Shown piece by piece: positions 1 to 21,084 of a DNA stretch of 64,000 nt. The first letter of the stretch is position 1, and every line of letters begins with the position of its first letter. The DNA is from Candidatus Aenigmatarchaeota archaeon (GTDB lineage: Archaea; Aenigmatarchaeota; Aenigmatarchaeia; CG10238-14; SCSR01), in NCBI GenBank assembly GCA_038998335.1, contig JAVZHQ010000001.1, forward strand, positions 140,455 to 204,454, written 5' to 3'. The notes under the pieces were generated by a model, which was not told the origin of the DNA, ran no database searches, and saw only the letters and a list, made by a program, of their open reading frames with translations. The position numbers and the translations under genes were made by a program.

Positions 1-536
1 CTACTTTTGAAGTAAGGGATTCGCATACTTTAAAAAATTGGATCGATGCCTTAGAAAATTCTTATTTGTTTTTTATTCTAGAAAGATATTCTCCCAAACT
101 AAAAGAGCAAATTATTGCACCAAAAAAAATTTATTGTGTGGATACAGGAATAGTTAATGCTGTTTCTTTCAGAACTTCTGAAAATTTCGGTAAACTGATG
201 GAGAATTTGGTTGGGGTTGAACTGGTTAGGAGAAAAAACTATTGGTATAAAAACTTGGAAATTTTCTACTGGAAAGACTATCAGCAGAATGAAGTTGATT
301 TTGTTTTAAAAGAGGGATTAAAAGTTAAACAATTAATTCAAGTTACCTATGCTTCTAGTAAAGATGAGGTTGAGAAGAGGGAAATTAAGTCTTTGGTTAA
401 AGCTTCCGATTTACTTAAATGTAAGGATTTGTTGGTAATAACCTGGGATTACGAAGGTCAACAAAAGATAAAAAACAAAAAAATTGTTTTCAAACCTTTG
501 TGGAAGTGGCTATTGATTGACTTTTTTTATTGTTAG
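1..536 (+). CDS. AAA+ ATPase with DUF4143 C-terminal domain (COG1373 family), 5'-truncated by window edge
   Basis: Frame open from position 3 (TFEVRDSHTLKNWIDALENSYLFF...); motifs PKKIYCVDTG, ENLV, EVDFV, LIQVTY, PLWKWLL typical of the family. Confidence 0.85.
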   Translation, partial: TFEVRDSHTLKNWIDALENSYLFFILERYSPKLKEQIIAPKKIYCVDTGIVNAVSFRTSENFGKLMENLVGVELVRRKNYWYKNLEIFYWKDYQQNEVDFVLKEGLKVKQLIQVTYASSKDEVEKREIKSLVKASDLLKCKDLLVITWDYEGQQKIKNKKIVFKPLWKWLLIDFFYC

Positions 537-546
537 ACGTCTAACA
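531..546. repeat. Palindromic dispersed repeat TGTTAGACGTCTAACA, copy 1
   Basis: Perfect 16-bp palindrome (18 bp with flanking T/A), preceded by T-tract; contains the ATPase stop codon. Confidence 0.9.
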
Positions 547-594
547 AAAGAAAATATTTGAGCAACCTTTAATTAATTGAAATTAAGGTAAAAC

Positions 595-1875
595 ATGCTT
601 GACATTAAATTGATAAGAGAGAAGCCAGAGTTTGTAAGGAAAAATTTGGAAAAGAGGCAAGACCCGGAAAAATTGAAAATGTTCGAAAGACTTTTAGAGC
701 TTGACAAGAAATTGCGCAGCCTCAAAACAGAAATGAACAAACTGAGAAACAGAAGGAACAAACTTACTTTAGAAATTTCAAGGTTGAAGAAAGAAAACAA
801 GGATACAAGCAAAATCTTAAACGAAGCTAAGAAAATCCACGATGAAATAAAAAGAATGGAAGAAGAGTCGAGCAGACTGGAAAAAGAAGTAAGGGATATT
901 TTGCTCAGGCTACCGAACATTTTGCACGATTCTGTACCTTTTGGTAAAGATGAAAACGATAACGTTGAAATAAGAAGAGTTGGTTCCCCACCAAAGTTTA
1001 ACTTTAAACCAAAAAATCATCTAGAAATTGCTTTAGAGTTGGGTTTGGTAGATCAAGAAAGGGCAGCAAAAGTTGCTGGGGCAGGCTTTTTCTACTTTAA
1101 AAAAGAATTGGTTTTGCTCGATCTAGCTATTCAAAAGTTTGCTCTAGATTTTATGATAAAAAAAGGCTATATTCCTGTAGAGCCTCCTTTCATGATAAAC
1201 AGAAAAGCTTACGAAGGAATGATAGACCCAAGCGACTTTGAAATGGTAACTTACAAAATAGAGAATGAAGATTTATACTTGATAGCAACTTCTGAGCATC
1301 CTATAGGAGCAATGTTTATGAATGAAATTTTAAATAAAAAAGACTTGCCTTTGAAGTTTGTTGGAATAAGCCCATGTTTTAGAAAAGAAATAGGCACGCA
1401 TGGAAAATACACGAAAGGATTTTTCAGGATGCATCAGTTTAACAAGGTTGAGCAATTCATTTTTTGCTTGCCAGAAGATTCCTGGAATTTGCACGAAGAG
1501 CTGCAAAGAAATTGTGAGGAGCTCTATCAAGCTTTAGGTTTGCATTACCGTGTAGTAAACGTTTGCACAGGAGATATAGGAACAGTAGCGGCAAAAAAGT
1601 ACGATACAGAGGTTTGGATGGTTGACGGAAAGTTTAGGGAAATAGGCTCAAACTCTAATTGCACAGATTATCAAGCAAGAAGGCTTAACATTAGGTTTAG
1701 AGAAAAGGAAGGAGAAAAGCCAAAAGGTTTTGTCCATACTTTAAACTCTACTGCCTTAGCGACAAGCAGAACCATGCTAGCTATTCTTGAACACTTCCAG
1801 CAAGAAGACGGGAGCGTGAAAATCCCAAAAGTTTTGGTTCCTTACATGAACGGAATTGAGGTTTTGGGTGAATGA
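595..1875 (+). CDS. serS: Serine--tRNA ligase
   Basis: MLDIKLIRE N-terminus, coiled-coil arm, LIATSEHP, FRKE..G, RMHQFNKVEQF, SNCTDYQARRL, HTLNSTA motifs. Confidence 0.97.
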   Translation: MLDIKLIREKPEFVRKNLEKRQDPEKLKMFERLLELDKKLRSLKTEMNKLRNRRNKLTLEISRLKKENKDTSKILNEAKKIHDEIKRMEEESSRLEKEVRDILLRLPNILHDSVPFGKDENDNVEIRRVGSPPKFNFKPKNHLEIALELGLVDQERAAKVAGAGFFYFKKELVLLDLAIQKFALDFMIKKGYIPVEPPFMINRKAYEGMIDPSDFEMVTYKIENEDLYLIATSEHPIGAMFMNEILNKKDLPLKFVGISPCFRKEIGTHGKYTKGFFRMHQFNKVEQFIFCLPEDSWNLHEELQRNCEELYQALGLHYRVVNVCTGDIGTVAAKKYDTEVWMVDGKFREIGSNSNCTDYQARRLNIRFREKEGEKPKGFVHTLNSTALATSRTMLAILEHFQQEDGSVKIPKVLVPYMNGIEVLGE

Positions 1876-1886
1876 GTTTTTTATAC

Positions 1887-1901
1887 GTTAGACGTCTAAC
1901 A
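1887..1901. repeat. Palindromic dispersed repeat, copy 2 (GTTAGACGTCTAACA)
   Basis: Same core just after serS stop, T-tract upstream. Confidence 0.9.
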
Positions 1902-1904
1902 ATT

Positions 1905-2032
1905 TTAAAGCTTCCTCCTTGCTTAAATGCAAAGATTTGCTAGTAATAACCTGGGATTATGAAGATCAATTAAAAATAGAAAACAAAAAAATTGTTTTCA
2001 AACCTTTGTGGAAGTGGTTGCTAGAAGTTTAG
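1905..2032 (+). pseudogene. 3'-terminal fragment of a DUF4143 ATPase paralog
   Basis: Translates KASSLLKCKDLLVITWDYEDQLKIENKKIVFKPLWKWLLEV*; near-identical to 397-515, no start codon. Confidence 0.85.
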
Positions 2033-2092
2033 TTTTTTTAAAAATGGTTTATTCTTCCAAAAAAGTTACAGGATGGTAGCAATTTTTTTCTA

Positions 2093-2108
2093 TGTTAGAC
2101 GTCTAACA
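2093..2108. repeat. Palindromic dispersed repeat, copy 3
   Basis: TGTTAGACGTCTAACA exact. Confidence 0.9.
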
Positions 2109-2120
2109 TTAACAACCTTT

Positions 2121-2711
2121 TCATTTTCTCAAACTTTCTATCAATTCTTTCATCTTTAGGCTAGAGCGACTAAACCTTAGAATGAGCATGGAAAAAAGAG
2201 CTAAAAAAACAGAAAGCTCCCTTATTCTCAAGACTCCAGAAATTCTTTTCCAGCTTGGTCTGTCAAACTCGCTTAAAGGAATTAGCTTTTCCGTATCCTT
2301 TCCAAAAGTTGGATCTACAACTTTCCATTCATTGTTTAAGTAAACTTCAGCAGCTATATGTCCAACTTTTTTTGGAAAATCCTTTACCTTAGCGTTAAGC
2401 TCGCATCTAAGTATTAAAAGATACCTTGCAGGAATTCCAACAGCTCTGCAAAGAGCTATGAAGAGATTAGCTTTATCTGCACATACTCCATGCATAGGGT
2501 TTCTTTTTAGCGTTTCCTTAGCACCAACTATCTCTTCTACTTTCCAAGCAACATTATCCCTTACCCAATAAAAAAATGCTCTAGCAGCTTCTTCAGGAGT
2601 TTTTTTATCTTTTGCTAAAGCTTGGGCTAGCTCTTTTATTTCTGGCAGGTTAGATTCGCACAAAAAAGTTGGTTCGCAATATTTTTCATAACCTTTTGGA
2701 GGTTCAAACAT
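2121..2711 (-). CDS. Transglutaminase-like (Cys-His-Asp) protein
   Basis: GVCADKANLFIALCRAVGIPARY, GHIAAEVY, VDPT; ATG at 2711 preferred over TTG at 2753. Confidence 0.85.
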   Translation of the reverse strand: MFEPPKGYEKYCEPTFLCESNLPEIKELAQALAKDKKTPEEAARAFFYWVRDNVAWKVEEIVGAKETLKRNPMHGVCADKANLFIALCRAVGIPARYLLILRCELNAKVKDFPKKVGHIAAEVYLNNEWKVVDPTFGKDTEKLIPLSEFDRPSWKRISGVLRIRELSVFLALFSMLILRFSRSSLKMKELIESLRK

Positions 2712-2739
2712 ATAATTAATTTGTTTGTTAAAAGATAAA

Positions 2740-2753
2740 TTGGAATATTCCAA
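2740..2753. promoter_or_regulatory. Candidate operator TTGGAATATTCCAA
   Basis: Perfect 14-bp palindrome ~30 bp upstream of transglutaminase ATG; same core at 5793-5804. Confidence 0.6.
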
Positions 2754-2760
2754 AAGTTTT

Positions 2761-3474
2761 TTAAATTTTTTCGCTAGTTGTTAGCAAGGTACTATGAGAA
2801 TAATAAGTTGTTTTTGTGTTAAGGATCTTGAAGTTGTTTTCCTCAAGAAGTTTCTCTACATAAGTTTTAGAATAAGGGGTAAGGTTGACTTTTAATTTCA
2901 TGGGAATGTTCATCAAGCCAACAACTACGCAGAAAGGAAGGGATAAAATCGTTTGTTTTGGTTTTTCTTTTAAGGAATACTTAAAGCCGCTTTTTCCCTT
3001 AGAGTATTCTACTTCACTTGTGTAGACTAAGCTTAGCCTTCCTCCCTTTCTTAAAATTCTCCTCGCTTCTCTTACAAAATTTTGTAAAGAGCTTGGGCTT
3101 AAGTAGTTTATAAAGTTAACAGCAGCGATTCCGTCAAAGTAGTTATCATTAAAAGGAAGCTTTTCTTCAAAATAGTACTTGTAAAGCTTGACGTTAGCGT
3201 TTGAATTTTTAATTTTTTTTGAGGCAATTTTAAGCGCTTGCTCTGAAGCATCTATACCCCAAACCTCAATTTCCTTAGAATTTTTAACTAGATATTGAAT
3301 CAAATTTCCTGTTCCACAACCAACGTCAAGAAATTTCTTTCCTTTACTAAAGTTTAAGCTTTCAGCAGTATCTCTTATCATTTTTTTGTATGGAGCAAAG
3401 TTGTTTAGGGAGTCGTAAAAAAATGGATAGATTTCCCAGAGCAAATCAGTTAAGCTAGCTGGCATAGAGCTCAC
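2761..3474 (-). CDS. Class I SAM-dependent methyltransferase
   Basis: FLDVGCGTG motif I, LPFNDNYFD, RILRKGG. Confidence 0.9.
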   Translation of the reverse strand: MSSMPASLTDLLWEIYPFFYDSLNNFAPYKKMIRDTAESLNFSKGKKFLDVGCGTGNLIQYLVKNSKEIEVWGIDASEQALKIASKKIKNSNANVKLYKYYFEEKLPFNDNYFDGIAAVNFINYLSPSSLQNFVREARRILRKGGRLSLVYTSEVEYSKGKSGFKYSLKEKPKQTILSLPFCVVVGLMNIPMKLKVNLTPYSKTYVEKLLEENNFKILNTKTTYYSHSTLLTTSEKI

Positions 3475-4906
3475 TTTCGAGTTCTTTTGAGGGCGAGAGG
3501 ATAAGATTGTGTGGCTTAAATTGGAGACTAGGAAAAACGATTTCTCTTAGCTTACCCTCGTCTATTTTTTTGAATCTAAGGAGGCTGTATCGTAAAGGGC
3601 AAACAGTATATCTTATCTTTTTACACATTTCTTCATAATTTCTCTCTTCCATACTACTTGGAATTAATATCAGCAGCTCTTCTTTTGTTTGTGGCTTGCA
3701 AATCGCAAAATTATAACCCGCATAAGATGTTAAGATTTCTTTTAGAATGTCAACAGAAACAGGATACTCTTTTATTTTTACGTAACCACTCTCGTGCTTC
3801 CTTCTTATGTCAATAGAAAGGGACGGAAAGGGAAGTGTTATTTTTTGATTGTTTAGGGTGATTGTGGTGGAATAGCTTACAAGCCTTGTAACATCACCTG
3901 GTGCATAATCAATTAGACATGTTCCCTCGAAGGGAGAGGTTATTTTGATTTCGCCTTCTTCGCCTTCGCTAACATTTTCACCTTTTTCGTCAACAACTCT
4001 GATATGGCACAGGTTTCCCATCACCATCAAGCTATCGCTAGCTTCCCAGTTTCTATCTACACTTGAAATAATTCCATAAGCTACACAGCCTAAGGGCATA
4101 CATTCCTGGGCACCATAGGCGTCTATAACTATTTTAGCTCCTATTTCATGTCCCAAGTCTATAACCTCTTTGCTTGGTTTAAAGCCTCCGGTACCTATGA
4201 ACATCAAGTTCTTATACCTAAGTTTGTTCTCGACCATAAAAGTACCTATATCCCTTAAAATTGATGGTGTAATCAAAACCCCGTTTGCATCATTTTCTAT
4301 AGAATCTAAAACATAATCACAAAGTTGTTCATGACTTAAAGGTTCCCCATAAGGTAATACTCTCAAAGGAATTTTTTGCGAGACTCGCATAAGAGAGGCG
4401 AAAGGATACGTCCCGGAGCCACCATAAATGTACATTCGAGAAAAAATAGCTACACTTGGCGTAGAAATGTTTGCAAAAAATCTCCTAAGACCACGGAGAT
4501 AAAGTTCTTTTATCACAGTATTAACATCTTTTTGTGTATAGGCTATTTTCTTTCTTTTAAATTTCTTTATTGTTTCAAGAAAACTTTCCCCGCTTCTTAA
4601 TCTTTCTACTAAGCTATAACCTGAAGACACTTGTACCCACGTCCTTTTATTTTGAGGTACAAGGCTTAAATGGGATGAAAAGTCATTTCCCATAAGGTCT
4701 GTACCTTCGACCCAGTTTACCTTATACTTCTGAAGGAAGTTATCAAGCTTTTCTATCGAGTTAATTCTTCTTACCTCGGAAAATTCAATCGAGTTTTCCC
4801 TTAACTTTTCTCTATAAAATGGTATCGAAAGCATAGCATCCCTAACTTTTTTAGCTATGCTATTCTGCTTTATTTTAACATAAAAGGGCGCTATTTTCTC
4901 TATCAT
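3455..4906 (-). CDS. Phenylacetate-CoA ligase/F390 synthetase-like adenylate-forming enzyme
   Basis: IPFYREKL N-terminus, VSSG loop, DAYGAQEC, GEEGEIKIT, LIDYAPGD motifs of PaaK-like ANL enzymes. Confidence 0.75.
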   Translation of the reverse strand: MIEKIAPFYVKIKQNSIAKKVRDAMLSIPFYREKLRENSIEFSEVRRINSIEKLDNFLQKYKVNWVEGTDLMGNDFSSHLSLVPQNKRTWVQVSSGYSLVERLRSGESFLETIKKFKRKKIAYTQKDVNTVIKELYLRGLRRFFANISTPSVAIFSRMYIYGGSGTYPFASLMRVSQKIPLRVLPYGEPLSHEQLCDYVLDSIENDANGVLITPSILRDIGTFMVENKLRYKNLMFIGTGGFKPSKEVIDLGHEIGAKIVIDAYGAQECMPLGCVAYGIISSVDRNWEASDSLMVMGNLCHIRVVDEKGENVSEGEEGEIKITSPFEGTCLIDYAPGDVTRLVSYSTTITLNNQKITLPFPSLSIDIRRKHESGYVKIKEYPVSVDILKEILTSYAGYNFAICKPQTKEELLILIPSSMEERNYEEMCKKIRYTVCPLRYSLLRFKKIDEGKLREIVFPSLQFKPHNLILSPSKELESELYAS

Positions 4907-4910
4907 AGTA

Positions 4911-5447
4911 TCACTTTTTTACCTCTATTTGAAACGTACAATATGGAGCACCTTTAGTGTAGCAGGAAAGCTCTTGTATTTTAGGTGTAGAATGGTATAA
5001 TATTTTTAGAGGAGCAAGTAAATTTGCTTCTACTATTTTACATACTTTTGAATTTTTTCCCCATTTTTGTTTAGCATATTCTACAAGCGGAGAATTTTCG
5101 ACTTTAACTGTATAGACTATTTTTTCTTTATTTTCTTTTTTGTTGACCAAAGTAAATTTCCCCAACCCGTAAAAGTCTGCAAATGGTAAAAGCTTCTCTA
5201 TGTTTAGGGAGGATGGTGATAAACCAAATGCTTTCGTTGCGTTTTCGATTGCAATTTCTGTGGCTTCCATTAAAATTTTAAAGGCTTTTTTTTCTCCAAG
5301 TTCTTCAAATATTTTCTGATGAAGATACGCAAATCCACAACTTTCTACTAAAGTCACATTGTATCTTCCCAAAATCGTAACCCTTCCTTCTTCAGCAGAA
5401 AAAGCCCTTCCAAGCAAAAGTTTTTTCAAAATAACAGCTATTCCCAT
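4911..5447 (-). CDS. V4R (small-molecule-binding) domain protein
   Basis: FYGLGKF, C...E..C..KGAPYC.F C-terminal V4R signature. Confidence 0.8.
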   Translation of the reverse strand: MGIAVILKKLLLGRAFSAEEGRVTILGRYNVTLVESCGFAYLHQKIFEELGEKKAFKILMEATEIAIENATKAFGLSPSSLNIEKLLPFADFYGLGKFTLVNKKENKEKIVYTVKVENSPLVEYAKQKWGKNSKVCKIVEANLLAPLKILYHSTPKIQELSCYTKGAPYCTFQIEVKK

Positions 5448-5456
5448 TCTCTCACC

Positions 5457-5753
5457 TCACAACCCTTTTAATAATTCGTGCACAACCCTAAGCTTTTCAA
5501 TCTCAGTAGGCCATGCTATGTAAGTGTTTCCAACTTTTTTCATGTCTATTAACCCCATTTCCTTAAGCTTGCGAAAATGGTAAAGGTACTTTGCAGAAAG
5601 CGTTTTCTCTTTTCCTTTATCTCCTAAAATCTCAGCAACTTCTAGCGGATTTGTAGGCCATCTAGAATGAATAATTTCAAAGACTTTTGCTGTAAGTTGA
5701 GAGACTTTTTTTACTCTTACGCTTTCAAGCATTTCTTCAAAGGTTTTTTCCAT
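5457..5753 (-). CDS. Winged-helix transcriptional regulator
   Basis: PLEVAEILG...YHFRKLKEMGLI...KVGN wHTH pattern. Confidence 0.75.
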   Translation of the reverse strand: MEKTFEEMLESVRVKKVSQLTAKVFEIIHSRWPTNPLEVAEILGDKGKEKTLSAKYLYHFRKLKEMGLIDMKKVGNTYIAWPTEIEKLRVVHELLKGL

Positions 5754-5760
5754 AATTTAA

Positions 5761-5804
5761 GAATATTCCATAAAGTATTTATAAGTTATGTATGGAATAT
5801 TCCA
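5761..5804. promoter_or_regulatory. Promoter with TATA box flanked by inverted operator sites
   Basis: GAATATTCCATA-N18-TATGGAATATTC perfect 12-bp inverted repeat enclosing TTATAAATA (minus strand) ~25-30 nt upstream of the HTH ATG. Confidence 0.65.
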
Positions 5805-5838
5805 AAAAAATCTATGAAATGTTTGTTGGCTGCTTTTC

Positions 5839-5854
5839 TGTTAGACGTCTAACA
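5839..5854. repeat. Palindromic dispersed repeat, copy 4
   Basis: TGTTAGACGTCTAACA exact. Confidence 0.9.
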
Positions 5855-5971
5855 ATTTTTTTCCTTTTACAACAAAATTACAACTTCTTTAAAATATTTT
5901 TCTTTTAAAAAATTTCTTAATCTTCACCATGCTTTTTTTTAAATTTCTATCCTAATGATAGAAAAATTTAA

Positions 5972-5986
5972 GTTAGATGTTTAACA
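5972..5986. repeat. Degenerate copy of palindromic repeat (GTTAGATGTTTAACA)
   Basis: 2 mismatches to consensus. Confidence 0.6.
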
Positions 5987-6219
5987 TATTTCTAAAACCC
6001 GTAATTTTAAATATTTTCAAATCGAGTTTAAATATTATGTGTTATAAAGATTTCCCAAATGAGTGCAAGAAATGTAGGCATTTATTTGAAGAATATAAAA
6101 TAGCTCAGAGTTATTTTATAATTCCGATAAAATTTTATCGTTCGTCCGAATGTACCAAATATGCTCTTAAGACTCATGAAATAATTTCTGCTCTACCTCT
6201 TTTAGAAATTAATTTTAAA

Positions 6220-7155
6220 TTAATTTCTACATTTGTTAATCGAGTATTTCGAGCTTAACATTTCATTGTCAGTCATAACCTTTCCTGAAGATTTTATGTT
6301 TATTTTTGAGTACTCGGGTATAATAAATAACAATTTATGAATATTTTCATTGTAGAATTTTAAATTTGTTATCATCCTTTTCTTTATCCTTTTCTTTATC
6401 TCTTTTTTGCTTAATAAAAGCGGATCAAACTTTTTTGATCCAGCAACAAAACCTGCACCAAAAGAATAGCCACGAACTATCGGGAAAACATTACTAACGG
6501 TTGCGTATATAGAACTAAAAGTATGAGAATTATAGAAAGGTGATGTGGCTTGTGTAACAAATATCCCATTTTTCTCCAATTTTCTTTTAACAATCTCGTA
6601 AAATTCTTTAGTGTATAGTCCAGCAGAAATTCCACACGGCGAAGGGTCTGTAGCATCGATAATTATACAATCAAATTTATCCGATTCTTCGATGAGATAG
6701 TTTCTTCCATCATTGAATATAACTTCTACTTTACTATTGTAAAAAGATCCTTGATGAATTTCTTTTAAATATTTTTTGGCCACATCGACAACATCTTTAC
6801 TTATTTCAACCATTTTTATTTTCTTAACAATATTATGTTTAAGTACTTCACGGATAGTTCCACCTTCACCCCCACCAATTACTAGTACTTTTGATGGGCG
6901 CGGATGTGTTATCATTATAGGATGTACGAGGGTTTCATGGTAAATCCATTCATCGTTTAAAGAAGATTGTATTTGATTATTTAAAACAAAACAGATGCCT
7001 CTGTCATATGTCTCTACAATTTCAATTTTATGATACTTTGTTTTTTTTCTATAAATTACTTTTTTTATTCTATAAATGGTTGCCATCGTAGGTGTAATAC
7101 AATCTAAAAGTATTTGTCCACTAAAATTATTTTCAGTTAGTTTATTCTTTTTCAT
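6220..7155 (-). CDS. speE: Polyamine aminopropyltransferase (spermidine synthase family), divergent
   Basis: IYHETLVHP, VLVIGGGEGG, VEI, DGR, IIIDATDP motifs. Confidence 0.85.
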   Translation of the reverse strand: MKKNKLTENNFSGQILLDCITPTMATIYRIKKVIYRKKTKYHKIEIVETYDRGICFVLNNQIQSSLNDEWIYHETLVHPIMITHPRPSKVLVIGGGEGGTIREVLKHNIVKKIKMVEISKDVVDVAKKYLKEIHQGSFYNSKVEVIFNDGRNYLIEESDKFDCIIIDATDPSPCGISAGLYTKEFYEIVKRKLEKNGIFVTQATSPFYNSHTFSSIYATVSNVFPIVRGYSFGAGFVAGSKKFDPLLLSKKEIKKRIKKRMITNLKFYNENIHKLLFIIPEYSKINIKSSGKVMTDNEMLSSKYSINKCRN

Positions 7156-7193
7156 AATTTAATTTAAATAATTAAATTACTTAAAATAGTTCA

Positions 7194-7532
7194 ATGAAAA
7201 TTAAAGAACTTTTGATAGATGCTTATAACTGTTCTGGAAACTTAAACAATAGTAGACTATTGTTATCTATTTTAATCAAATCCGCAAAAAAAGTTGGTGC
7301 TAAGGTTGTAAACTGGTTGGTTCATAATTATAAACCTTTTGGAGTTAGTGTTGTAGTTTTGTTAGCAGAGAGTCATGTATCAGTATACACATGGCCAGAA
7401 TATAAGTATGCAGCGATTGAAATATTCCTTTGTAACGAGAAAATGAATCCGGAGCTCGTTTGGAAAAATATTAAAAAATATATTCGGCCCAAAAAATATT
7501 TTATCAAAAAAGTTTATAGAAGTGTTAAATAA
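7194..7532 (+). CDS. speD: Pyruvoyl-dependent S-adenosylmethionine decarboxylase proenzyme family
   Basis: GVSVVVLLAESHVSVYTWPE with ES self-cleavage site; 112 aa. Confidence 0.85.
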   Translation: MKIKELLIDAYNCSGNLNNSRLLLSILIKSAKKVGAKVVNWLVHNYKPFGVSVVVLLAESHVSVYTWPEYKYAAIEIFLCNEKMNPELVWKNIKKYIRPKKYFIKKVYRSVK

Positions 7533-7540
7533 TGCTACTT

Positions 7541-8317
7541 TTACTCTTTTTCACTTAGAATTTTTCCGATAAATTTCTTCCAATTCCCAATACTTTTAAC
7601 ATCTTCAAGATGAACTTGAAATAATTTAACATACGGATTTCTTGTCTTTTTTGGTAAAGGAATGTTTAGTACGCGAAAGGTTATTATATCTGTTATGGCT
7701 TCGTTTATTTTTGATTCATCTTTCCTGTATTTTTTAGGAATTTGTTTGATTATTCTATTCATTAAATTTAAGTGCACGAGTTCATGCGTTATAGCAAGTT
7801 TTAATAATTTATTATCGTTGGTTCTTCCAATAGCAATTCCATTAGGAGGTACAGGTTCAGCACCAAATTTATACTCGAAAGAAAGTGCTTCTATCAAATA
7901 AATTTTAATTTCTCTTGGGAATGGTAAATTAGTAAAAGTTTCTATTTTATTTAAAGTATCGAGGACAAAATTTTTATCTATTTTTTTTGAAAAATTTTTA
8001 AGTTTTGGTTCAATCTCTTTTTTCCATAAGGGTTTATAAAGCCTACTACTCTTAAGTAAAATTCTCTCTACTCTTTTTTCAAATTCACTCATACATTTTT
8101 TAAGACGTTTCTTTTTACCTATTGCTTTTTTAAAATACCAAGAAATATTTTGAGGGTCAAATTCCCATCCAAACTCTTTACTTAGTTTTTCAAAGTTTGA
8201 GAATTCTGTGGCATATTTTTGATTGAATCTTTGAGGAACGCTTCCGCTAAGCTTCTCAAGATGATAAAAAAGATTTAATTTAAAGTTGATTTCGACGCTA
8301 AGCTTGGTAGATTTCAT
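7541..8317 (-). CDS. Putative zinc metallopeptidase (gluzincin-like HExxH...E)
   Basis: ITHELVH followed ~20 aa later by NEAITD. Confidence 0.65.
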   Translation of the reverse strand: MKSTKLSVEINFKLNLFYHLEKLSGSVPQRFNQKYATEFSNFEKLSKEFGWEFDPQNISWYFKKAIGKKKRLKKCMSEFEKRVERILLKSSRLYKPLWKKEIEPKLKNFSKKIDKNFVLDTLNKIETFTNLPFPREIKIYLIEALSFEYKFGAEPVPPNGIAIGRTNDNKLLKLAITHELVHLNLMNRIIKQIPKKYRKDESKINEAITDIITFRVLNIPLPKKTRNPYVKLFQVHLEDVKSIGNWKKFIGKILSEKE

Positions 8318-8347
8318 AAATTATTTTAAATTTTTTAAAATTAATAA

Positions 8348-9298
8348 ATGAATATGCAAAAGAGTGATTTAAAAAAATTCGAGAAAGAAATTTATTTTAA
8401 CATAAACTACAGAAGTACCTGTAATAATAACTGTCTATTTTGTGATGCTGACGAAGGTTATGAACTAATAACTTCTCAAAAAATTTTTGAAATTCTAGAG
8501 AAAGAAAGAGTAGGGCCTAAAGATAGAGTAGTATATTGTGGAGGTGAGCCAACAACTCACCCAGAAATAATAGATATAGTTCAAGGTACATGTAAAAAGT
8601 ATTCGTCAAATTTATATTTCTTGACAAATGGAAGAAAACTTTCGGATTTGGAATTTTCGAAGAAGCTTTTAAAAAAAATAAAAGGTGGTTGTGTTTCCGT
8701 CCCTATTTATGGTTACACATCAAGTATGCACGATTATTTAACTCAATCAAATGGAAGTTTTAAGGAAACTATTAAAGGGGTAACTAATTTATTTAAGTTA
8801 AGAGACGATTATGGGTTTGATTTTGAGATAGAACTTAAAGTATTAATTTGTAAACCTACCTATAAGTATATCTCTAAGATTGTTAAATTCATACAAAAAA
8901 AATTTCCCCAACCTGACTATTTAGTAATAAGTTCTTTGGACATTTCAAATCGTGTTTTGGAAAATCTTGATAAAGTATTTGTAAGATTAAGTGAAGCATC
9001 TCCTTATCTTCGAGAAGCCATAGATATGATCGATGATAAAGAAAACTTAGTTCTATATTTTATACCATTATGCATCCTAAAAGATGAAAAATATTTTCCA
9101 ATAGCTAATAGTTTACGTGGAATCCTTTGTAAAGCTCCTACAAAGTATTATGATCCGCGTAATCTCAACGGAATAGTAGGATATACGGAGAAATCAAAAA
9201 GCCCTAACTGTAAACTTTGTAAATATGATAATTTTTGTGATGGTCTATGGAAAAGATATACAAATTTAGTTGGTTTTGGGGAGCTGGTACCTTTTTAA
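8348..9298 (+). CDS. Radical SAM protein, HxsC-like
   Basis: CNNNCLFC, GGEPT, LTNGR, HDYLTQSNGSFKETIKG, C-terminal PLC...CKLC.YDNFCDGLW..Y Cys cluster. Confidence 0.85.
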   Translation: MNMQKSDLKKFEKEIYFNINYRSTCNNNCLFCDADEGYELITSQKIFEILEKERVGPKDRVVYCGGEPTTHPEIIDIVQGTCKKYSSNLYFLTNGRKLSDLEFSKKLLKKIKGGCVSVPIYGYTSSMHDYLTQSNGSFKETIKGVTNLFKLRDDYGFDFEIELKVLICKPTYKYISKIVKFIQKKFPQPDYLVISSLDISNRVLENLDKVFVRLSEASPYLREAIDMIDDKENLVLYFIPLCILKDEKYFPIANSLRGILCKAPTKYYDPRNLNGIVGYTEKSKSPNCKLCKYDNFCDGLWKRYTNLVGFGELVPF

Positions 9299-9322
9299 TT
9301 AGTACCAATTTAGCTTAATAAA

Positions 9323-10096
9323 CTAGCGTTTTTTTCCTATAGTTAATATATCCATCCCAAGATTAATGAAAGGTTGTGTTTTTGCGAGAGATTCTTCTAA
9401 ATTCAGATAATAATAAAGGTTGTCTATCAATTCTTTGGAATTTTCTAGAAAAAAGAAAAAAGGAATAAATGATATTCCTTCCATAGAAATTAAATAGAAA
9501 TACTTTTTTATCAGAGAACTCAGTTCATTTGTATCGTAGAGCCGAACTTCTAACTTTTTATCTCCTATGTAATGTGGATAAATTTTTGAGTTATTTTTAA
9601 GAGCTTCCAAATGTTTTTTATTCTGAAGTCTTATGTACGAGTATTTGGAATAGAAAGTAGATAAAAAAATACCATCCTTTCTTATAACTCTTTTGATTTC
9701 TTTAAGCACGGGTTCTATCCTTTTAACATAGTTTAGAGACCCGTAAATACTCACTATACAATCAAACTCCTCATCTTTGAAATAATGCAATTTTGTTGCA
9801 GAAAGAACTTTGTAACTAACTTTGTTTTCAACCTCCTTGGGCAAATTTTCTACAGCCTTCGTAATCATTTTTGTTGAAACATCTATTCCAGTAACGGTGC
9901 AATTCCTCTTTTGAGCAAGATATATGCTAGGGAAACCAGTCCCACAACCGATGTCGAGAACTTTAGAATTTTTGGGAATATATTTGTCTAATATACGTTT
10001 AACTCTTTCTCTATAGAAGATTTGATAAGGTCTTTCCATCAAGTTGTCGTAGTGAGGTGCAAATGAATTATAAGCTTTTTTTACTCTTTCCATCAT
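9323..10096 (-). CDS. Class I SAM-dependent methyltransferase
   Basis: AYNSFAPHYD, VLDIGCGTG, GIDVS, SLNY. Confidence 0.9.
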   Translation of the reverse strand: MMERVKKAYNSFAPHYDNLMERPYQIFYRERVKRILDKYIPKNSKVLDIGCGTGFPSIYLAQKRNCTVTGIDVSTKMITKAVENLPKEVENKVSYKVLSATKLHYFKDEEFDCIVSIYGSLNYVKRIEPVLKEIKRVIRKDGIFLSTFYSKYSYIRLQNKKHLEALKNNSKIYPHYIGDKKLEVRLYDTNELSSLIKKYFYLISMEGISFIPFFFFLENSKELIDNLYYYLNLEESLAKTQPFINLGMDILTIGKKR

Positions 10097-10119
10097 TCCA
10101 TATTTTTAAGGCTAATAAA

Positions 10120-11445
10120 TTAAAATGTAATTTCTTTAGTCCAAGGATCTTTATAGTTGTTGATAATGAAATTTAATAAGAATTTGTAGTATCCTTTTAT
10201 AAATTTACAGAAAGGAGAAGGTTTAAAAGTATCATTATAAAAATGCAAGCATTCACCAGGACAACCACCGTTACAAAAAAATTGCCATGGACAGCTTGTA
10301 CATTCTTTTATCGTACTTGCAGCTCTTAATGGAAATTTAATAAAATTTTTATAAGCTTCCTGAAAAGAATTCAATTCAGTTACATTACCAAGTTTAAATG
10401 TAGGTATTTGAAGTCGGGTGCAAGGATATAAATTCCCATTTATATCAACAAAATACATTCTTAACCCTGCAGCGCACCCTCTCGATAAACATATATTTTT
10501 ATCATACATCCTTGTTAAGTTGTCGAAGTACTCGTCTAAAAGTTTTGACTTACAGCCTTTTCTTTTAAGTTTGTATGCTTCTAGAAAAATCCTCTTTTTA
10601 ATAGTAAGAAATTCTTCAGGAGAAATAAGTAATGAAGCATTTTGTTTCGCCCTCCCCATTAAAATTATGTAATTGAACCTAGAGGCAGAAATGTTAAGAT
10701 CAAGCCATAAATGACGTAAAATACCTTCTGGCTCCTTCATATTAAACTTGTGGAAAGTAGTAATAGAAGATATCCAATTGAAACCAGCATTTCTTAAATT
10801 TTCAATAGCTTTAATTACATTATCGTAGCTTCCTCTACCGTTCTCGTAAATTCTCGCTGAGTTATGTTCAAATTCACGACCATCAATACTTATACCAACT
10901 TTTATATCATACTCTTTAAGTTTTTTTGCAATCTTAGGTGTCAAAATTGTCCCATTTGTTTCGATATTAACTTTTAACTCCGCAAGATCTTTTTTTAACT
11001 CTCTAATTTTATTTATTAACCACTCAATTTTTTTCCATTCTAATAAAGGTTCACCTCCAGAAGGTTGAATTCCTATTCGCTTATTAGGTAATTTTGCAAT
11101 TAACTCAGCAATTCTCTCGAGAGTTTCTTTTTTCATACTTTTTCCCTTTCCAGCATCGGCATAACAGTATTTACACCTTAATGTACATTTCTTAGTAAGT
11201 TCGATCTCTATAAGTGTTGGGTTAAAGTCATATCTCTTTACAGAAACTGGCCGAAGTTGTCCGTCTAACTTTATTATACCTCTCCAAAAAAATTTTCGAA
11301 TAAGATTTTCATTCCATTCATTATTTGTAAACTTCCTATAAATATCATTAGAAATATGTACCCAACCTCCTGTTAGATGAGAAAATATCACATAACCATT
11401 TTTAGTTTTCCATGAAGAATAAGGGAGTACTTCTACTTTTACCAT
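10120..11445 (-). CDS. Radical SAM/SPASM peptide maturase (HxsB/anSME-like)
   Basis: CTLRCKYC, GGEPLL, ETNGT, SIDG; SPASM C..C(AAG)...YPC...C..C...C.GGC...C...C; N-terminal RRE-like extension. Confidence 0.92.
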   Translation of the reverse strand: MVKVEVLPYSSWKTKNGYVIFSHLTGGWVHISNDIYRKFTNNEWNENLIRKFFWRGIIKLDGQLRPVSVKRYDFNPTLIEIELTKKCTLRCKYCYADAGKGKSMKKETLERIAELIAKLPNKRIGIQPSGGEPLLEWKKIEWLINKIRELKKDLAELKVNIETNGTILTPKIAKKLKEYDIKVGISIDGREFEHNSARIYENGRGSYDNVIKAIENLRNAGFNWISSITTFHKFNMKEPEGILRHLWLDLNISASRFNYIILMGRAKQNASLLISPEEFLTIKKRIFLEAYKLKRKGCKSKLLDEYFDNLTRMYDKNICLSRGCAAGLRMYFVDINGNLYPCTRLQIPTFKLGNVTELNSFQEAYKNFIKFPLRAASTIKECTSCPWQFFCNGGCPGECLHFYNDTFKPSPFCKFIKGYYKFLLNFIINNYKDPWTKEITF

Positions 11446-11735
11446 ACTATTCCCATCTCTATAAGCTCGTCTAAAATTTTACTAGCATTATTTTTAAAGT
11501 AAGGTTTAAGTATATTAAGGATTTGGTATTTTTTCAATTTTCCCTTTTCTAATTTTTGGAATAATTTTTCCAAACAAGGTGAGTATTCTACTTCAAAAAC
11601 TCGTGATGCGTGATCGTCTAACAAAAATATTTTTGATTCTTTAATAATAACCCTAACCGCGGGTGATAATTTAAATGTAGATAAATTTTTACCTGTAATT
11701 ATTTCTACATGAGAAAAGGGCCTTTCTATTATCAT
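11439..11735 (-). CDS. Putative RiPP recognition element (PqqD-like wHTH)
   Basis: 98 aa, three beta strands then helices ending ILDELIEMGIV; overlaps rSAM start. Confidence 0.65.
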   Translation of the reverse strand: MIIERPFSHVEIITGKNLSTFKLSPAVRVIIKESKIFLLDDHASRVFEVEYSPCLEKLFQKLEKGKLKKYQILNILKPYFKNNASKILDELIEMGIVW

Positions 11736-11753
11736 AAATTATCATATAAAGAT

Positions 11754-11918
11754 TTAGGTAGTTGTAGACCAGTTAAGCCAGTAGGCTTTTATAGGAACAT
11801 CAGAAGGCTGAAGATCCTCGTAGCTTATTTCTTTGCAATAGGTGAAGGGCACACTTCTAAACTCATTCTGCAAGGACAACTTTTTATCTTTTATTGAGAT
11901 TTTATACGCTTCTTCCAT
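11754..11918 (-). CDS. Putative RiPP precursor peptide (54 aa), not in ORF track
   Basis: Hand translation: MEEAYKISIKDKKLSLQNEFRSVPFTYCKEISYEDLQPSDVPIKAYWLNWSTTT*; TATA-like TTATAAATA ~25-30 nt upstream; first gene of RRE-rSAM operon. Confidence 0.75.
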   Translation of the reverse strand: MEEAYKISIKDKKLSLQNEFRSVPFTYCKEISYEDLQPSDVPIKAYWLNWSTTT

Positions 11919-12003
11919 AAATTATAAAAATTACTTAAAATATTTATAAGTTACGGATATAAAGGTGCCTTTAAATTTGTAATCTCAACTTAGAAAATAC
12001 TTG

Positions 12004-12375: not shown

Positions 12376-12378
12376 AAA

Positions 12379-15679: not shown

Positions 15680-15680
15680 A

Positions 15681-16511: not shown

Positions 16512-16549
16512 ACTAATTTATTTTCAAGTTTTAAAAGAATTAATTTTTG

Positions 16550-16714: not shown

Positions 16715-16721
16715 AGCACCA

Positions 16722-16832: not shown

Positions 16833-16833
16833 A

Positions 16834-17490: not shown

Positions 17491-17579
17491 TAAAATGAGT
17501 AGGAAAAATGAGTTTAAAAAGGTTTTTTTAAGGAATTTAAAAATTTTAAGCTTTCTTCCTTTTAAAATTGAAAAAAGGA

Positions 17580-17839
17580 AGGCGTGCTAGCCATAGCCCC
17601 TCTTATGTTTTGGTAGCATTTGTCTAAGCGTTTCAAACTTGCATCCCAGGCCTACCAGACCGTTTCATCCTTTTAGCCTCAACTCAGCTTTCGCATCATG
17701 GTTAGCGAAGCTAAAAGGTCTCGTTTCTGATTCTGGTAGAGGCTTCTCAGCCTGCTGCTTAAGCAGCACCTTAAGGGATGGAGGGAACTTCCTCAGCTTT
17801 GCTTTGATGCAAAGCCGAAGCTACCTGGCTAGCTCGCCT
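17580..17839 (-). ncRNA. rnpB: Archaeal RNase P RNA
   Basis: GC-rich island; terminal P1 pairing AGGCGAGCTAGCCA/TGGCTAGCACGCCT; CR-I GAGGAAGTTCC and CR-V-like AACATAAGAGGGGCTA. Confidence 0.85.
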
Positions 17840-17917
17840 ATATTTTTATTACCCCAACAACTTATAAATTTTTCTTTTAGTTTTAAAAATAAGAGAAAGG
17901 AAAAAGAAATTAATATT

Positions 17918-18631: not shown

Positions 18632-19218
18632 GCTTTAGCGAAATCTTCAACTTTAAAGTTAAACTCAGCGTCTGACTTTATCTCTTTTCTTTCTTTCAAT
18701 ATTTCTCTCGCTAAAAGCCAAAGAATAGTTGCTAAGGCTTTCTTTCCTTTGTTGTTAGCAGGAACAATTAAATCAATATTTTTTGTTTCGTTTATCGTAT
18801 CGCAAAGGGCAACTACAGGAATTCTTGCTTTTACTGCTTCCTTCAAAGCCTGATAATCTATTAAAGGATCAAAAATGAAAACAACTTCTGCCTCATAGTA
18901 TTCTTTGTAAGAAGGGTTTGTTAGAGTTCCTGGCATAAACCTTCCAAGAATAACTTTTGCTCCTATAACCTCAGCAAATCTTTTTATTCCTTCTTGAACA
19001 GAAGACTTTCTGCTTACTATTAGAATTTTTTTATGTCTTGCTAAGAATTTTGCAGCAACCCTTATTCTCTCATCAATTTTTTTCAAGTTTAAAATACAAA
19101 GTCCATCTTCCCTTACTTTGTAGATAAACTCCTTCATATCCTTAGTTTTTTGCTTCATTCCTATGTGAATTCCAGATGCCAAATACTGCTGCCTAGGAAT
19201 TAATAGTTTGCTTACCAT
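18628..19218 (-). CDS. rps2: 30S ribosomal protein uS2
   Basis: YLASGIHIG, GRFMPGTLTNP, PANNKG. Confidence 0.97.
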   Translation of the reverse strand: MVSKLLIPRQQYLASGIHIGMKQKTKDMKEFIYKVREDGLCILNLKKIDERIRVAAKFLARHKKILIVSRKSSVQEGIKRFAEVIGAKVILGRFMPGTLTNPSYKEYYEAEVVFIFDPLIDYQALKEAVKARIPVVALCDTINETKNIDLIVPANNKGKKALATILWLLAREILKERKEIKSDAEFNFKVEDFAKA

Positions 19219-19222
19219 TCTC

Positions 19223-20017
19223 TTAACCTATGTAGCTAAGCTTTTCTTCTTTTCCTGGTTTTTCCACAGATTTAAGCAATTGTCCTAAAGCTCTTTTTTG
19301 CACGTCTTCAACTTTTTTTATAAAATCTTCCATCTCTTTTACTTTTTTCTCTATTTTACTTGTGTCTATCTTAACGTTAAGTATTTTTACCACAACTTTA
19401 AGCAAGGCTTCTGCACTTTTTTGGTCTGGTATTATAGGAAAGCCTACAGTTTCACCAAGCAGACAAACTCCTTTCATCCCTCTTACTTTTCCTAAACCTA
19501 TTATCAAACCAGAAGCTCCAACTATTGTCCCAACTCTACTTCCTGCCTCAAAATCTATCCCATACTTTTGATATTTTTTGATCATTTCTTCATCGCTTAC
19601 TGCTCCTACAACCTTTGGTTTTTCTACCATTTCTCCTATACTTAAGCCTGCTAAGGTTATTATCTCCTTTACCCCAAACTTTTCCACATAATCTAAAATA
19701 GTGTTAACTATTTCATAATGTCCTTCTGGGTCAACACTTTGGCTATCTCCTATTAAAATTATCAAGTCTCTCTGGTTTCTTTCCTTAGCTTTCCAGTAGT
19801 AAAATTCATTTTTAAGAACATGTACTGCAGAGCTTTGATGTAGCAAAACAAAAGGCATAAAATGTGAAGAATAAAGTTCTGCAAACTTTTTTGCTTTAAG
19901 CTCTTCTACTAAGTAGCCTGCAGCGATTCTTCCAACATTACCTACTCCTGGCAAACCTTCTATGAATAAAGGATCTTTCAGCTTTGGCTTTTCAAGTTCT
20001 TTTATCCAAGTCGTCAT
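19223..20017 (-). CDS. PAC2-family proteasome assembly chaperone
   Basis: IEGLPGVGNVG, IVGASGL, CLLGET, C-terminal YIG. Confidence 0.9.
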   Translation of the reverse strand: MTTWIKELEKPKLKDPLFIEGLPGVGNVGRIAAGYLVEELKAKKFAELYSSHFMPFVLLHQSSAVHVLKNEFYYWKAKERNQRDLIILIGDSQSVDPEGHYEIVNTILDYVEKFGVKEIITLAGLSIGEMVEKPKVVGAVSDEEMIKKYQKYGIDFEAGSRVGTIVGASGLIIGLGKVRGMKGVCLLGETVGFPIIPDQKSAEALLKVVVKILNVKIDTSKIEKKVKEMEDFIKKVEDVQKRALGQLLKSVEKPGKEEKLSYIG

Positions 20018-20051
20018 AATATCATATTTTCTTTTAGCAAATATATTTAAA

Positions 20052-20201
20052 TCATTTCTCTTTTAACCTTCTTCTGTACTTTCCATACTTATCCGTAGGC
20101 GAATAAGGCGGTGGTAAAGGTAGTACAGTTTTTTTGTTACACTTTGGGCAATTCTCCTTAAAAGTATAAATTTTGCAGGAATTACACCTTCTCATTTTCA
20201 T
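20052..20201 (-). CDS. nop10: H/ACA RNP protein Nop10 (49 aa, not in ORF track)
   Basis: MKMRRCNSCKIYTFKENCPKC...PPPYSPTDKYGKYRRRLK; conserved position between aIF2alpha and PAC2. Confidence 0.9.
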   Translation of the reverse strand: MKMRRCNSCKIYTFKENCPKCNKKTVLPLPPPYSPTDKYGKYRRRLKEK

Positions 20202-20968
20202 TTTATTAACCTGTAACTTCCTTCTCCCTTTGCTTCCTTGATTTCTTTTAAAGTTTTTTCTAAGTTTTCAATAAGTTTTTTCTCCATAGCCTTGGGGTTT
20301 TTCCCTTCTATTTCAACTCTGTAACGAGGAGCACTTATGTACTTAACTTTTATTCCATTTTTTTCCAAATTCAAAAGGATCTCTTTAATTTTTTTAATTC
20401 CTTCACTGTCATAACTTTTTAACTCTAGCTCAGCTTTTATCTTAACTTCCTTTTCCTTAAAACTTTTTTCTAGAGCTTCAAGCAAAGCTTTTGCCCATTT
20501 TTCTGGTATACCTTTTTTGACAAGAATTTCGGGTGATTTCCTTGCCTCTTCAAAAGCAGCATAAAGCTCGCCGAACTTTTCTTGGAGCAAAAACCCAACT
20601 TCTTCATAAGCTTGATCTAAGGTTTTACCAAATTCCTTAGCAACTTGTTCTAAAATTTTTTCTGCTCTCTGCTCTTTTTTATAAGCATTCATCTTTTCCT
20701 TCTTTTCTTCTTCGCTAACTCTTTTCAAGCTTAGGTTTACAAATTTTTTCTGGTAATCTATTTTCACAACTTTTGCAACATATTGCTTATTAACTTTAAC
20801 AAACTCTCTAATGTCATGAACCCATTTTCCACTAACTTCAGAAACATGAATCATCCCTTCAGCTTCAGGGTATTCTTCAAGCTTACACCAAGCAGCATAA
20901 GGTGAAATCCTTTGAACAGTACATAAAACAAGTTCTCCCCATTCAGGCAAACCTTTTCTTCTTGGCAA
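20198..20968 (-). CDS. eif2a: Translation initiation factor 2 alpha subunit
   Basis: LPEWGELV, S1 domain, IHVSEVS, LSLKRV, SAPRY; TTG start with GGTGA RBS. Confidence 0.95.
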   Translation of the reverse strand: MPRRKGLPEWGELVLCTVQRISPYAAWCKLEEYPEAEGMIHVSEVSGKWVHDIREFVKVNKQYVAKVVKIDYQKKFVNLSLKRVSEEEKKEKMNAYKKEQRAEKILEQVAKEFGKTLDQAYEEVGFLLQEKFGELYAAFEEARKSPEILVKKGIPEKWAKALLEALEKSFKEKEVKIKAELELKSYDSEGIKKIKEILLNLEKNGIKVKYISAPRYRVEIEGKNPKAMEKKLIENLEKTLKEIKEAKGEGSYRLIK

Positions 20969-21026
20969 TTTTTCACCTCTCTAATAAATTAGTAAATAAA
21001 TAATTTAACTTTCAGCATGCTTTTTT

Positions 21027-21042
21027 TGTTAGACGTTTAACA
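21027..21042. repeat. Palindromic dispersed repeat, distant copy (TGTTAGACGTTTAACA)
   Basis: 1 mismatch to consensus, T-tract upstream; between aIF2alpha start and tRNA-Leu 3' end. Confidence 0.75.
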
Positions 21043-21084
21043 TTAAAAATCTCAACACTGTCTCTAAATAAGAATGCAGGGTAG

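Follow-up and report, generated by a model that had tools for sequence, protein, structure and literature searches.

A short palindrome recurs between the genes of a 64,000-nucleotide stretch of DNA from a Candidatus Aenigmatarchaeota archaeon. This stretch (the window) covers positions 140455-204454 of contig C1 of the genome under study (G000; 1,009,365 bp in 9 contigs, 33% G+C, 90% complete; contigs are labelled C1 and so on, and related genomes carry other G numbers). We propose that a solo 69-residue protein with a predicted Cas2 fold recognises the palindrome, TGTTAGACGTCTAACA, and its T/A flanks, a unit of about 34 bp, as its site on double-stranded DNA. The sites would lie at transcription-unit borders and have promoter and terminator roles. 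On sequence comparison and a structural model, we give this statement as a whole a probability of about 0.6. Taken alone, its central part, that the palindrome is the cognate site of the 69-residue protein, is very probable. Computation showed that gene and sites go together, that protein and palindrome covary and that the palindrome types of a genome correspond to its paralogues; it also gave the fold, the promoter register of the sites and the constraint under which they stand.

A perfect palindrome dispersed between genes

Exact copies of the 14-mer core, GTTAGACGTCTAAC, started at window positions 532, 1887, 2094 and 5840. Inexact copies were found at 21028 (1 mismatch) and 5972 (2 mismatches). 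At up to 2 mismatches the window thus held 6 matches against 0.17 expected, and 0 of 100 dinucleotide shuffles reached 6. The full 16-mer was present in three of the four exact copies, and the copy at 1887 had C for T on its 5' side. A previous reading of the window from its letters and open reading frames (ORFs), here called the sequence-only reading, had listed four exact copies and two variants. Its coordinates are those of the 16-mer and were right within 1 base. The copies, none of which has a strand, and one flanking tract are as follows.

531..546: palindrome copy 1, TGTTAGACGTCTAACA; overlaps the stop of a DUF4143 ATPase gene by 5 bp; 14-mer edge 49 bp before the serS ATG
522..528, plus strand: oligo-T tract, 3 bp ahead of copy 1; it illustrates the symmetric T/A flanks
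1887..1900: palindrome copy 2, exact 14-mer, imperfect 16-mer; 11 bp past the serS stop, abutting an ATPase 3' remnant; no start nearby
2093..2108: palindrome copy 3; in a convergent 3'-3' spacer, 13 bp past the stop of a minus-strand transglutaminase-like gene
5839..5854: palindrome copy 4; 86 bp upstream of the 98-residue first gene of a minus-strand operon; homology to G001 and G002 stops at its outer edge
5972..5985: degenerate copy GTTAGATGTTTAAC, 2 mismatches, from the motif scan; probably a decayed site
21027..21042: variant copy TGTTAGACGTTTAACA, 1 mismatch; between tRNA-Leu, whose 3' end is 42 bp away, and the eIF2-alpha start, 59 bp downstream

The variant TGTTAGACGTTTAACA was present again in G006 and G023.

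The whole genome contained 19 exact copies, 21 at up to 1 mismatch and 23 at up to 2 mismatches. One of the matches at up to 2 mismatches lies within an ORF on C8 and is probably due to chance, leaving 22 real sites. All 22 were intergenic, although long ORFs cover about 93% of C1. With 17 copies, TGTTAGACGTCTAACA was the sole over-represented perfect 16-mer palindrome in the genome; every other one occurred at most twice. The flank consensus of 21 genomic copies showed a T-tract at -10 to -5 and a mirror A-tract at +4 to +10 from the 14-mer, so the unit is symmetric and about 34 bp long. The T-tract reported beside the copies was therefore real, with the A-tract on the other side in addition. 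The claim that the copies sit at module boundaries also held. All of them lie between ORFs, Pfam confirmed the flanking gene families, and the copies mark transcription-unit borders.

A solo Cas2-like gene flanked by the palindrome

A 69-residue Cas2-like ORF was found at C1:317854-318063, 113 kb past the window end. Two sites precede its ATG, one at 40 bp and the other, with 1 mismatch, at 5 bp; a third follows 41 bp after its stop. Its neighbours are genes for transcription factor B (TFB) and a SUI1-like protein. The sequence-only reading had suggested a factor acting in trans from outside the window, and the position of this gene bears that out. Of the 118 genomes in the order, 58 contained members of the Cas2-like family, with between 1 and 16 copies each. 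They are single-domain proteins of 67-77 residues. Paralogues are 35-50% identical and so are not recent copies. Database records of the homologues came from Candidatus Aenigmarchaeota/Aenigmatarchaeota and were labelled 'hypothetical protein' or, automatically, Cas2.

The structure was modeled using AlphaFold2 with an alignment of 62 sequences. The model (pLDDT 95.9) had the order beta-alpha-beta-beta-alpha-beta, with helix 1 at residues 14-26. It thus has the predicted ferredoxin-like fold of Cas2, a protein of about 70-100 residues. When the model was compared with the PDB using Foldseek, ranks 1-29 were all Cas2, with template modelling scores of about 0.6-0.7 (3exc, 2ivy, 4es2 and 8d3l chain E). 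Sequence matches were weaker. The protein scored 20.7 bits against Pfam Cas2 (PF09827), below the cut-off of 23.8. Across 62 family members, 15 had weak matches to Cas2 (E <= 0.01) and 18 to PaaX_M (best E 1e-5), and the family profile matched PDB Cas2 chains at E of about 0.4. An aspartate at the end of strand 1 (D8) was nearly invariant in the family; we take it to be the counterpart of the catalytic Asp of Cas2 nucleases.

A CRISPR link of this protein was considered and rejected. No Cas_Cas1 match was found in the 90% complete genome, and a crude repeat scan gave no CRISPR array, since the repeats that it flagged fall within one 3511-residue ORF. This ORF (C1:123-10658) consists of tandem repeats of 66-138 bp, which mimic an array in such a scan, and it probably encodes a surface protein. 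In the titles and abstract openings of the literature, nothing was found on the exact 14-mer or on solo Cas2-fold proteins with private palindromes.

Two genomes of other genera (G062:C45, locus L043, and G095:C56, locus L045) carried proteins 94-99% identical to the G000 type, with identical flanking sites. These copies may reflect transfer or mis-binned contigs.

Protein and palindrome vary together

To compare proteins with their sites, 88 distinct homologues from 30 genomes were used; the statistics ignore the shared ancestry of a gene and its upstream DNA. A perfect CG-centred palindrome was found within 130 bp upstream of 47 of the 88 homologues, mostly 1-22 bp from the start. A site in the regulator's own promoter, with its position kept across the family, is what an operator would show. 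The 47 palindromes were of 21 types on the scaffold TGnnAnAC|GTnTnnCA. Between-genome pairs that shared a palindrome were 65% identical in protein sequence, against 45% for the rest, a difference that none of 2000 label shuffles reached. In 25 of 33 cases, the closest homologue from a different genome carried the same palindrome. Variability in the family was centred between conserved 'PR' and 'NR' motifs. The strongest covariation was between residues 15-18 and 21, in helix 1, and palindrome positions 4 and 6, as expected if these residues set the specificity for operator bases.

The number of palindrome types per genome was then compared with the number of genes, a test that does not rely on the linkage of a gene to its own upstream DNA. 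G000 has one intact Cas2-like gene and one dispersed palindrome type, and G006 has two genes and two dispersed types. The minor palindrome types of G003 occurred solely upstream of its extra paralogues. In G012, whose protein is 63% identical, TGTTATACGTATAACA was dispersed six times. G009, with 16 paralogues, had 45 scaffold matches of about 10 types (control 5). These often form arrays, with two or three different types 20-21 bp apart in the spacers of ordinary genes (loci L132 and L134-L137, e.g. G009:C10:9117-9188). Pairs recurred across loci; TGATACACGTGTATCA lay beside TGTTATACGTATAACA at three places, for example. Five genomes of the same taxonomic family without a detected protein gave 0, 0, 0, 1 (not palindromic) and 0 scaffold matches.

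Decayed genes gave the reverse case. The TGTCATACGTATGACA type had only two copies in G000, none of them dispersed, and both lie directly upstream of decayed Cas2-like paralogues.

C1:344300-344566 and C1:496145-496260: remains of two Cas2-like paralogues, the reading frame shifted in one and cut off after about 27 codons in the other; a TGTCATACGTATGACA-type palindrome directly precedes each

Helix 1 of these paralogues matches the protein type that carries the TGTCATACGTATGACA palindrome in G103 and G009.

Sites lie at promoter and terminator positions

Genome-wide, TATA-like hexamers peaked at -30 to -26 from start codons, with A at -34/-33, so genes in this genome look largely leaderless. 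Outward from the 14-mer, both flanks of the sites had A at +1, an A-tract at +5 to +10 and T at +12. Start-facing flanks alone had a further TTT at +12 to +14 and AA at +16/+17, which is a TATA box in the genomic register. Among 19 start-facing distances, 11 were 36-51 bp, including those to tRNA-Glu (51 bp) and to an intron-containing tRNA (48 bp). Apart from the Cas2-like gene, no site was closer than 36 bp to a start, and 11 of 25 stop-facing distances were below 20 bp. On stop-facing sides, the A-tract is the oligo-T of the incoming gene, at the position where archaeal terminators lie. The sequence-only reading had argued against a transcription-factor site because copies occur at 3' ends. 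The site of a DNA-binding protein is nevertheless the best-supported option; most of the 3'-end copies also precede the next gene or tRNA by 36-86 bp (14 of 22).

The intron-containing tRNA is a 120-nt gene at C1:785188-785307; it was matched by Rfam and missed by ARAGORN. At C1:407647-415875, the 16S and 23S genes are about 3.4 kb apart, with opposite-strand protein-sized ORFs and tRNA-Ala between them. The 16S 3' end is followed at 96 bp by a palindrome. A functional link to the DUF4143 ATPases was also considered and dropped; a site accompanies only two of the four in G000, and in G006 and G009 the sites lie next to unrelated housekeeping or transport genes.

Conservation of the sites in relatives

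Forty relatives were searched for the exact 14-mer. It was present in all five same-genus genomes (16, 1, 11, 4 and 14 copies). Beyond the genus, sister genus G006 had 14 copies and G011 one; the other 33 relatives had none. In 11 orthologous site pairs from G003, G004 and G005, the flanks were 66% identical and the 14-mer was intact in 10.

The window spacer 40166-40245, which is orthologous to a site in G003, holds another perfect 16-mer palindrome, AGTTAAAGCTTTAACT, single-copy in G000. Loss of the palindrome centre ('decay by central deletion'), a possible sign of cutting at ACGT, was also considered and rejected, because arms intact around an altered centre occurred 7 times against 6 in a scrambled control.

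Proposed role of the protein-bound sites

The fixed register to BRE/TATA (BRE, the TFB recognition element), the oligo-T facing stops and the conservation of the core led us to see in the unit a border element that works with protein bound to it. It is our inference that the protein binds and dimerises, and so are the way in which it regulates and any action as a terminator or insulator. Most likely a dimer binds, and the helix-1 start of either subunit recognises positions 3-6 of a half-site. Occupied sites would mark transcription-unit borders. On a start-facing side, a site directly upstream of BRE/TATA might help or hinder recruitment of TFB and the TATA-binding protein. Through its second site, 5 bp from the ATG, the Cas2-like gene would be repressed by its own product. 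On a gene-end side, with oligo-T at the terminator position, the bound protein could act as a boundary or roadblock. Within the window, such sites would cover the promoters of serS (49 bp), of the minus-strand five-gene unit (86 bp) and, through a variant, of eIF2-alpha (59 bp). Those at 1887 and 2093 would be terminator-side sites.

Several observations weigh against this reading. Perfect 16-mers made up 17 of the 22 sites, which is unusual in a regulon. Eight of the 22 had no start within 90 bp (they lie in convergent spacers and at the 16S 3' end), and the split of sites among spacer types was about that of random placement among spacers. On the protein side, 41 of the 88 homologues had no perfect upstream palindrome; eight of these had near-palindromes, among them the closest non-genus relatives with GTTATACGTCTAAC-like sites. 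The covariation statistics were uncorrected for shared ancestry. No G000-type protein was detected in G004 (4 sites, 80% complete) or G002 (1 site, 69% complete).

The targets were also poorly conserved. About half of the 24 sites examined in G002-G005 had no counterpart in G000, serS had no site in G012, G006 and a G004 fragment, and most neighbours of G006 sites had no G000 homologue. Beyond the palindrome edge at window 5840, G000, G001 and G002 carry unrelated DNA. In two spacers, genomes differed by a discrete block of 21-36 bp that contains the palindrome, with conserved sequence on either side. One such block (about 36 bp, the palindrome with both A/T flanks) was found only in G003 among 5 genomes. 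G003 is the most distant genus member in these alignments and may be an outgroup, so these indels could be gains or losses. The G003 insertion had no source copy and no longer conserved element, and only generic A/T flanks were common.

A mobile or copied element as an alternative

These discrete blocks also suit another explanation, in which the ~34-bp unit is a miniature mobile or copied element, like repetitive extragenic palindromes (REPs) and their associated tyrosine transposases (RAYTs), here built on a Cas2 fold. The Cas2-like protein, acting as a nuclease, would spread or maintain the unit, and promoter or terminator effects would be secondary. We consider this possible and unlikely on balance. 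As with REPs and RAYTs, copies of the repeat lie on both sides of the gene, and repeat and protein covary. Most copies are perfect, their placement is independent of spacer type, and sites turn over within the genus. In fragmented assemblies, family genes and palindromes also seem to be common within 200 bp of a contig end. The nearly invariant D8, if it is equivalent to the catalytic Asp of Cas2, would suit a nuclease.

However, the hairpins were weak for a hot-spring organism (-2.1 to -4.8 kcal/mol at 37 C), nothing was conserved past about 34 bp, and no target duplications were seen. The G003 indel could be a gain or a loss. Paralogues at 35-50% identity are not recent copies. The fixed register of sites to BRE/TATA and to the protein's own ATG, and core conservation at orthologous sites, suit a host function instead. 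The REP-like analogy that had been raised from the window may hold in part. The dispersed repeats do covary with the gene that they flank; the fold is that of Cas2, the hairpins are weak and no RAYT was found. The only Y1_Tnp match lies at C9:522-866, and C9 has no palindrome, so a RAYT was rejected.

A combined scheme is also conceivable, though doubtful. The ~34-bp unit might be a self-spreading 'promoter-terminator' mini-element that the solo Cas2-fold protein reads and, through a retained nuclease activity, copies or breaks. Such a REP/RAYT-like pair would seed transcription-unit borders and render them prone to gene gain and loss, and the protein could represent the type of DNA-binding ancestor that gave rise to CRISPR Cas2 by recruitment.

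Another binding factor as an unlikely alternative

Some other factor might bind the palindrome, the Cas2-like gene being merely its most heavily regulated target. A conserved operator would be inherited along with its gene in any case, and binding by the Cas2-like protein is itself a prediction. The repertoires make this very unlikely. Within one genome, the palindrome differs from paralogue to paralogue in keeping with the helix-1 residues, scaffold palindromes are missing from genomes that lack the family, and the decayed paralogues coincide with the absence of their dispersed type.

Recombination between palindromes as an improbable alternative

The sequence-only reading favoured integron-like recombination sites, or their scars, that shuffle gene cassettes through a recombinase encoded elsewhere. 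Structure, junctions, breakpoints and outgroups were all against this, and we regard it as highly improbable.

Gene content around the sites did differ. At several places, the close relative G001 had one palindrome where G000 had two flanking 1-3 genes, and several differences among G000, G001 and G002 began 1-19 bp from a palindrome edge. Truncated genes abut palindromes, namely the window ATPase 3' remnant and a 117-bp serS 5' fragment in G002. At window 5840, homology ended 1 bp (G001) and 2 bp (G002) beyond the outer edge of the palindrome. There, G002 (L160, G002:C58, 1520-1635) carried this serS fragment, 85% identical, with 31 bp of leader. Such an exact boundary may leave room for a local role in rearrangement.

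As for breakpoints (>40 bp) against 69 kb of G001, they fell in 6 of 15 palindrome spacers and 7 of 32 others, an enrichment that was not significant (Fisher p = 0.29) in a count where greedy chaining mis-handled locus L009 and some events were scored in two spacers. Clean reciprocal products, in which flank-palindrome-flank faces flank-palindrome-X-palindrome-flank with both outer flanks continuous, were not seen. The individual events (A to E) had other accounts. Event A, an extra ATPase gene, is explained by paralogous ATPase genes that recombined through their similar 3' ends; the G001 gene has the body of paralogue A and a B-like tail. In events B and D, homology ran 16-19 bp past the first palindrome and did not resume at the second. 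In event C, both sites remain in G001, one of them, formerly in front of the missing Yip1-like gene, in decayed form. In events C and D, it was G001 that lost DNA, since G004 (C) and G003 (D) share the G000 state; these deletions do not run from site to site. Event E lies at a tRNA 3' end, not at a palindrome. The ATPase remnant in the window could be explained by a deletion at 7 bp of microhomology. Inner inverted repeats around an AcnX gene were followed up and set aside as a single case, not seen at other bracketed genes.

At locus L031 (G001:C10, 2669-3967), a 432-residue tyrosine-recombinase-like gene directly follows tRNA-Glu and is absent there in G000. It is 48% identical to G000 C2:124966-126132 and looks like an element integrated at the tRNA.

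No attC-like structure was found either. The halves abut, and single-strand folds of four window sites gave -2.1 to -4.8 kcal/mol at 37 C (z 0.0 to -2.9). Rfam gave no match at E <= 1 in window 400-6400, in a search that contained no dedicated attC model. A fully symmetric site would also give a recombinase no directionality. The half-site GTTAGAC does fit the integron core consensus (GTTRRRY, inverse RYYYAAC) literally, as had been pointed out, and this agreement is confined to the genus. Palindromes of the same family elsewhere, such as TGTAATACGTATTACA, break that consensus, as do TGTAATAC, TGATACAC and TGTCATAC. Because these related palindromes do not fit, the agreement is coincidental.

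G000 has four tyrosine recombinases (Phage_integrase matches) and the Y1_Tnp match on C9, and none is placed as an integron integrase or RAYT. The nearest tyrosine recombinase, Xer-like, is 400 bp from the site at C1:796444, and none adjoins the clustered copies. An integron layout of intI, attI and a co-oriented array was not found; the bracketed genes are on both strands and spread over 660 kb.

A structural role as an RNA hairpin terminator, DNA cruciform or parS-like segregation site is scarcely credible: many copies lie 1-16 bp past stop codons behind oligo-T, and the 16-mer may be loosely like the bacterial parS palindrome, yet oligo-T precedes the palindrome in both directions and never follows it, the stems are weak, a hairpin needs no exact sequence conservation across genera, and parS/ParB was rejected for want of a ParB_N (PF02195) match in the 90% complete genome.

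Genes around the window sites

The genes next to the copies in the window are as follows.

3..536, plus strand: 3' part of DUF4143/AAA_14 ATPase gene 'B', from Pfam; the full gene is C1:139638-140990
595..1875, plus strand: serS, seryl-tRNA synthetase, between copies 1 and 2
1901..2041, plus strand: 3'-end remnant of a DUF4143 ATPase gene, the third of its kind; it begins where copy 2 stops
2121..5753, minus strand: five-gene unit (transglutaminase-like, S-adenosylmethionine-dependent methyltransferase, AMP-binding-like, V4R-like, 98-residue protein), between copies 3 and 4
5855..11997, no strand: ~6.1-kb segment with a speE-like gene and neighbouring genes, missing from G002 at the junction and starting at the edge of copy 4
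20198..20968, minus strand: eIF2-alpha-like gene, downstream of the 21027 variant
21084..21170, minus strand: tRNA-Leu(UAG), 3' end towards the 21027 variant

Pfam matches in the window were DUF4143 ATPase, transglutaminase-like, methyltransferase, AMP-binding and, weakly, V4R. The ATPase remnant that had been noticed after serS was real, with an 85% match over 120 bp to the ATPase 3' end of a relative. At the right edge of the ~6.1-kb segment (window 11998, as set by G002), there was no palindrome remnant. Genes beside sites in G000 include those for TFB, eIF2-alpha-like, RpoD-like and ribosomal proteins and the archaeal rRNAs. Parts of the stretch were present in 9 public hot-spring metagenome runs from 3 studies; no RNA runs for it were found among the public sequencing runs searched.

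What specific binding would mean

If the protein binds these sites, a Cas2-fold domain alone, without a helix-turn-helix, would be a sequence-specific DNA reader. It would add a new fold to the archaeal transcription-factor repertoire. In Aenigmatarchaeota, this reader would have diversified to as many as 16 paralogues per genome, each with a private palindrome and linked to it by a simple recognition code (helix-1 residues 15-21 against site positions 3, 4 and 6). Many small genes mislabelled 'Cas2' in tiny genomes would be accounted for, and the case would bear on the origin of duplex-DNA handling by Cas2 in CRISPR adaptation. For annotation, the sites flag transcription-unit borders in an uncultured lineage.

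Comparison with known systems

With Cas2, the protein shares its predicted fold, its size, a conserved Asp at the end of strand 1 and weak Pfam matches. The Cas2 dimer lays duplex DNA across the face that carries helix 1. We know of no sequence-specific site of this kind for Cas2. The solo family is multi-copy, has a hypervariable helix-1 start that covaries with private palindromes, and, in G000, was found without a cas1 gene or CRISPR array.

A PaaX-type repressor consists of a GntR-like winged helix, a 'Cas2-like' domain (PF20803) and a C-terminal domain. The weak PaaX_M matches of 18 of 62 family members are a likeness to it. In contrast, the archaeal proteins of 67-77 residues have the Cas2-like domain alone, without the winged helix or the C-terminal domain, and no PaaX structure was among the Foldseek matches listed.

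REP/RAYT systems resemble this one in that a gene is flanked by a short palindromic repeat that is also dispersed between genes, in the covariation of repeat and protein clade, and in variable positions among relatives. The analogy is one of arrangement only, as the fold is another, that of Cas2 and not of an HUH/Y1 transposase. Here the repeat is a loop-less perfect 16-mer with a weak hairpin and a fixed promoter register. Of the REP/RAYT hallmarks, covariation was found, and a RAYT gene and a stable hairpin were not.

Integron attC sites are imperfect inverted repeats (R''-L''...L'-R', about 57-141 bp) that form a single-strand hairpin with extrahelical bases. The palindrome is like them in that its half-site GTTAGAC fits GTTRRRY and its copies flank single genes. 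It differs in having no attC structure, array organisation or integrase link, and its sister palindromes break the consensus.

The palindromic operators of small, autoregulated dimeric repressors and the archaeal activator sites that precede the BRE differ from it in the fold of the presumed reader, the mostly perfect sites, the roughly one third of sites without a promoter and the poorly conserved targets. They share with it the dyad symmetry, a site in the gene's own promoter and other sites before BRE/TATA.

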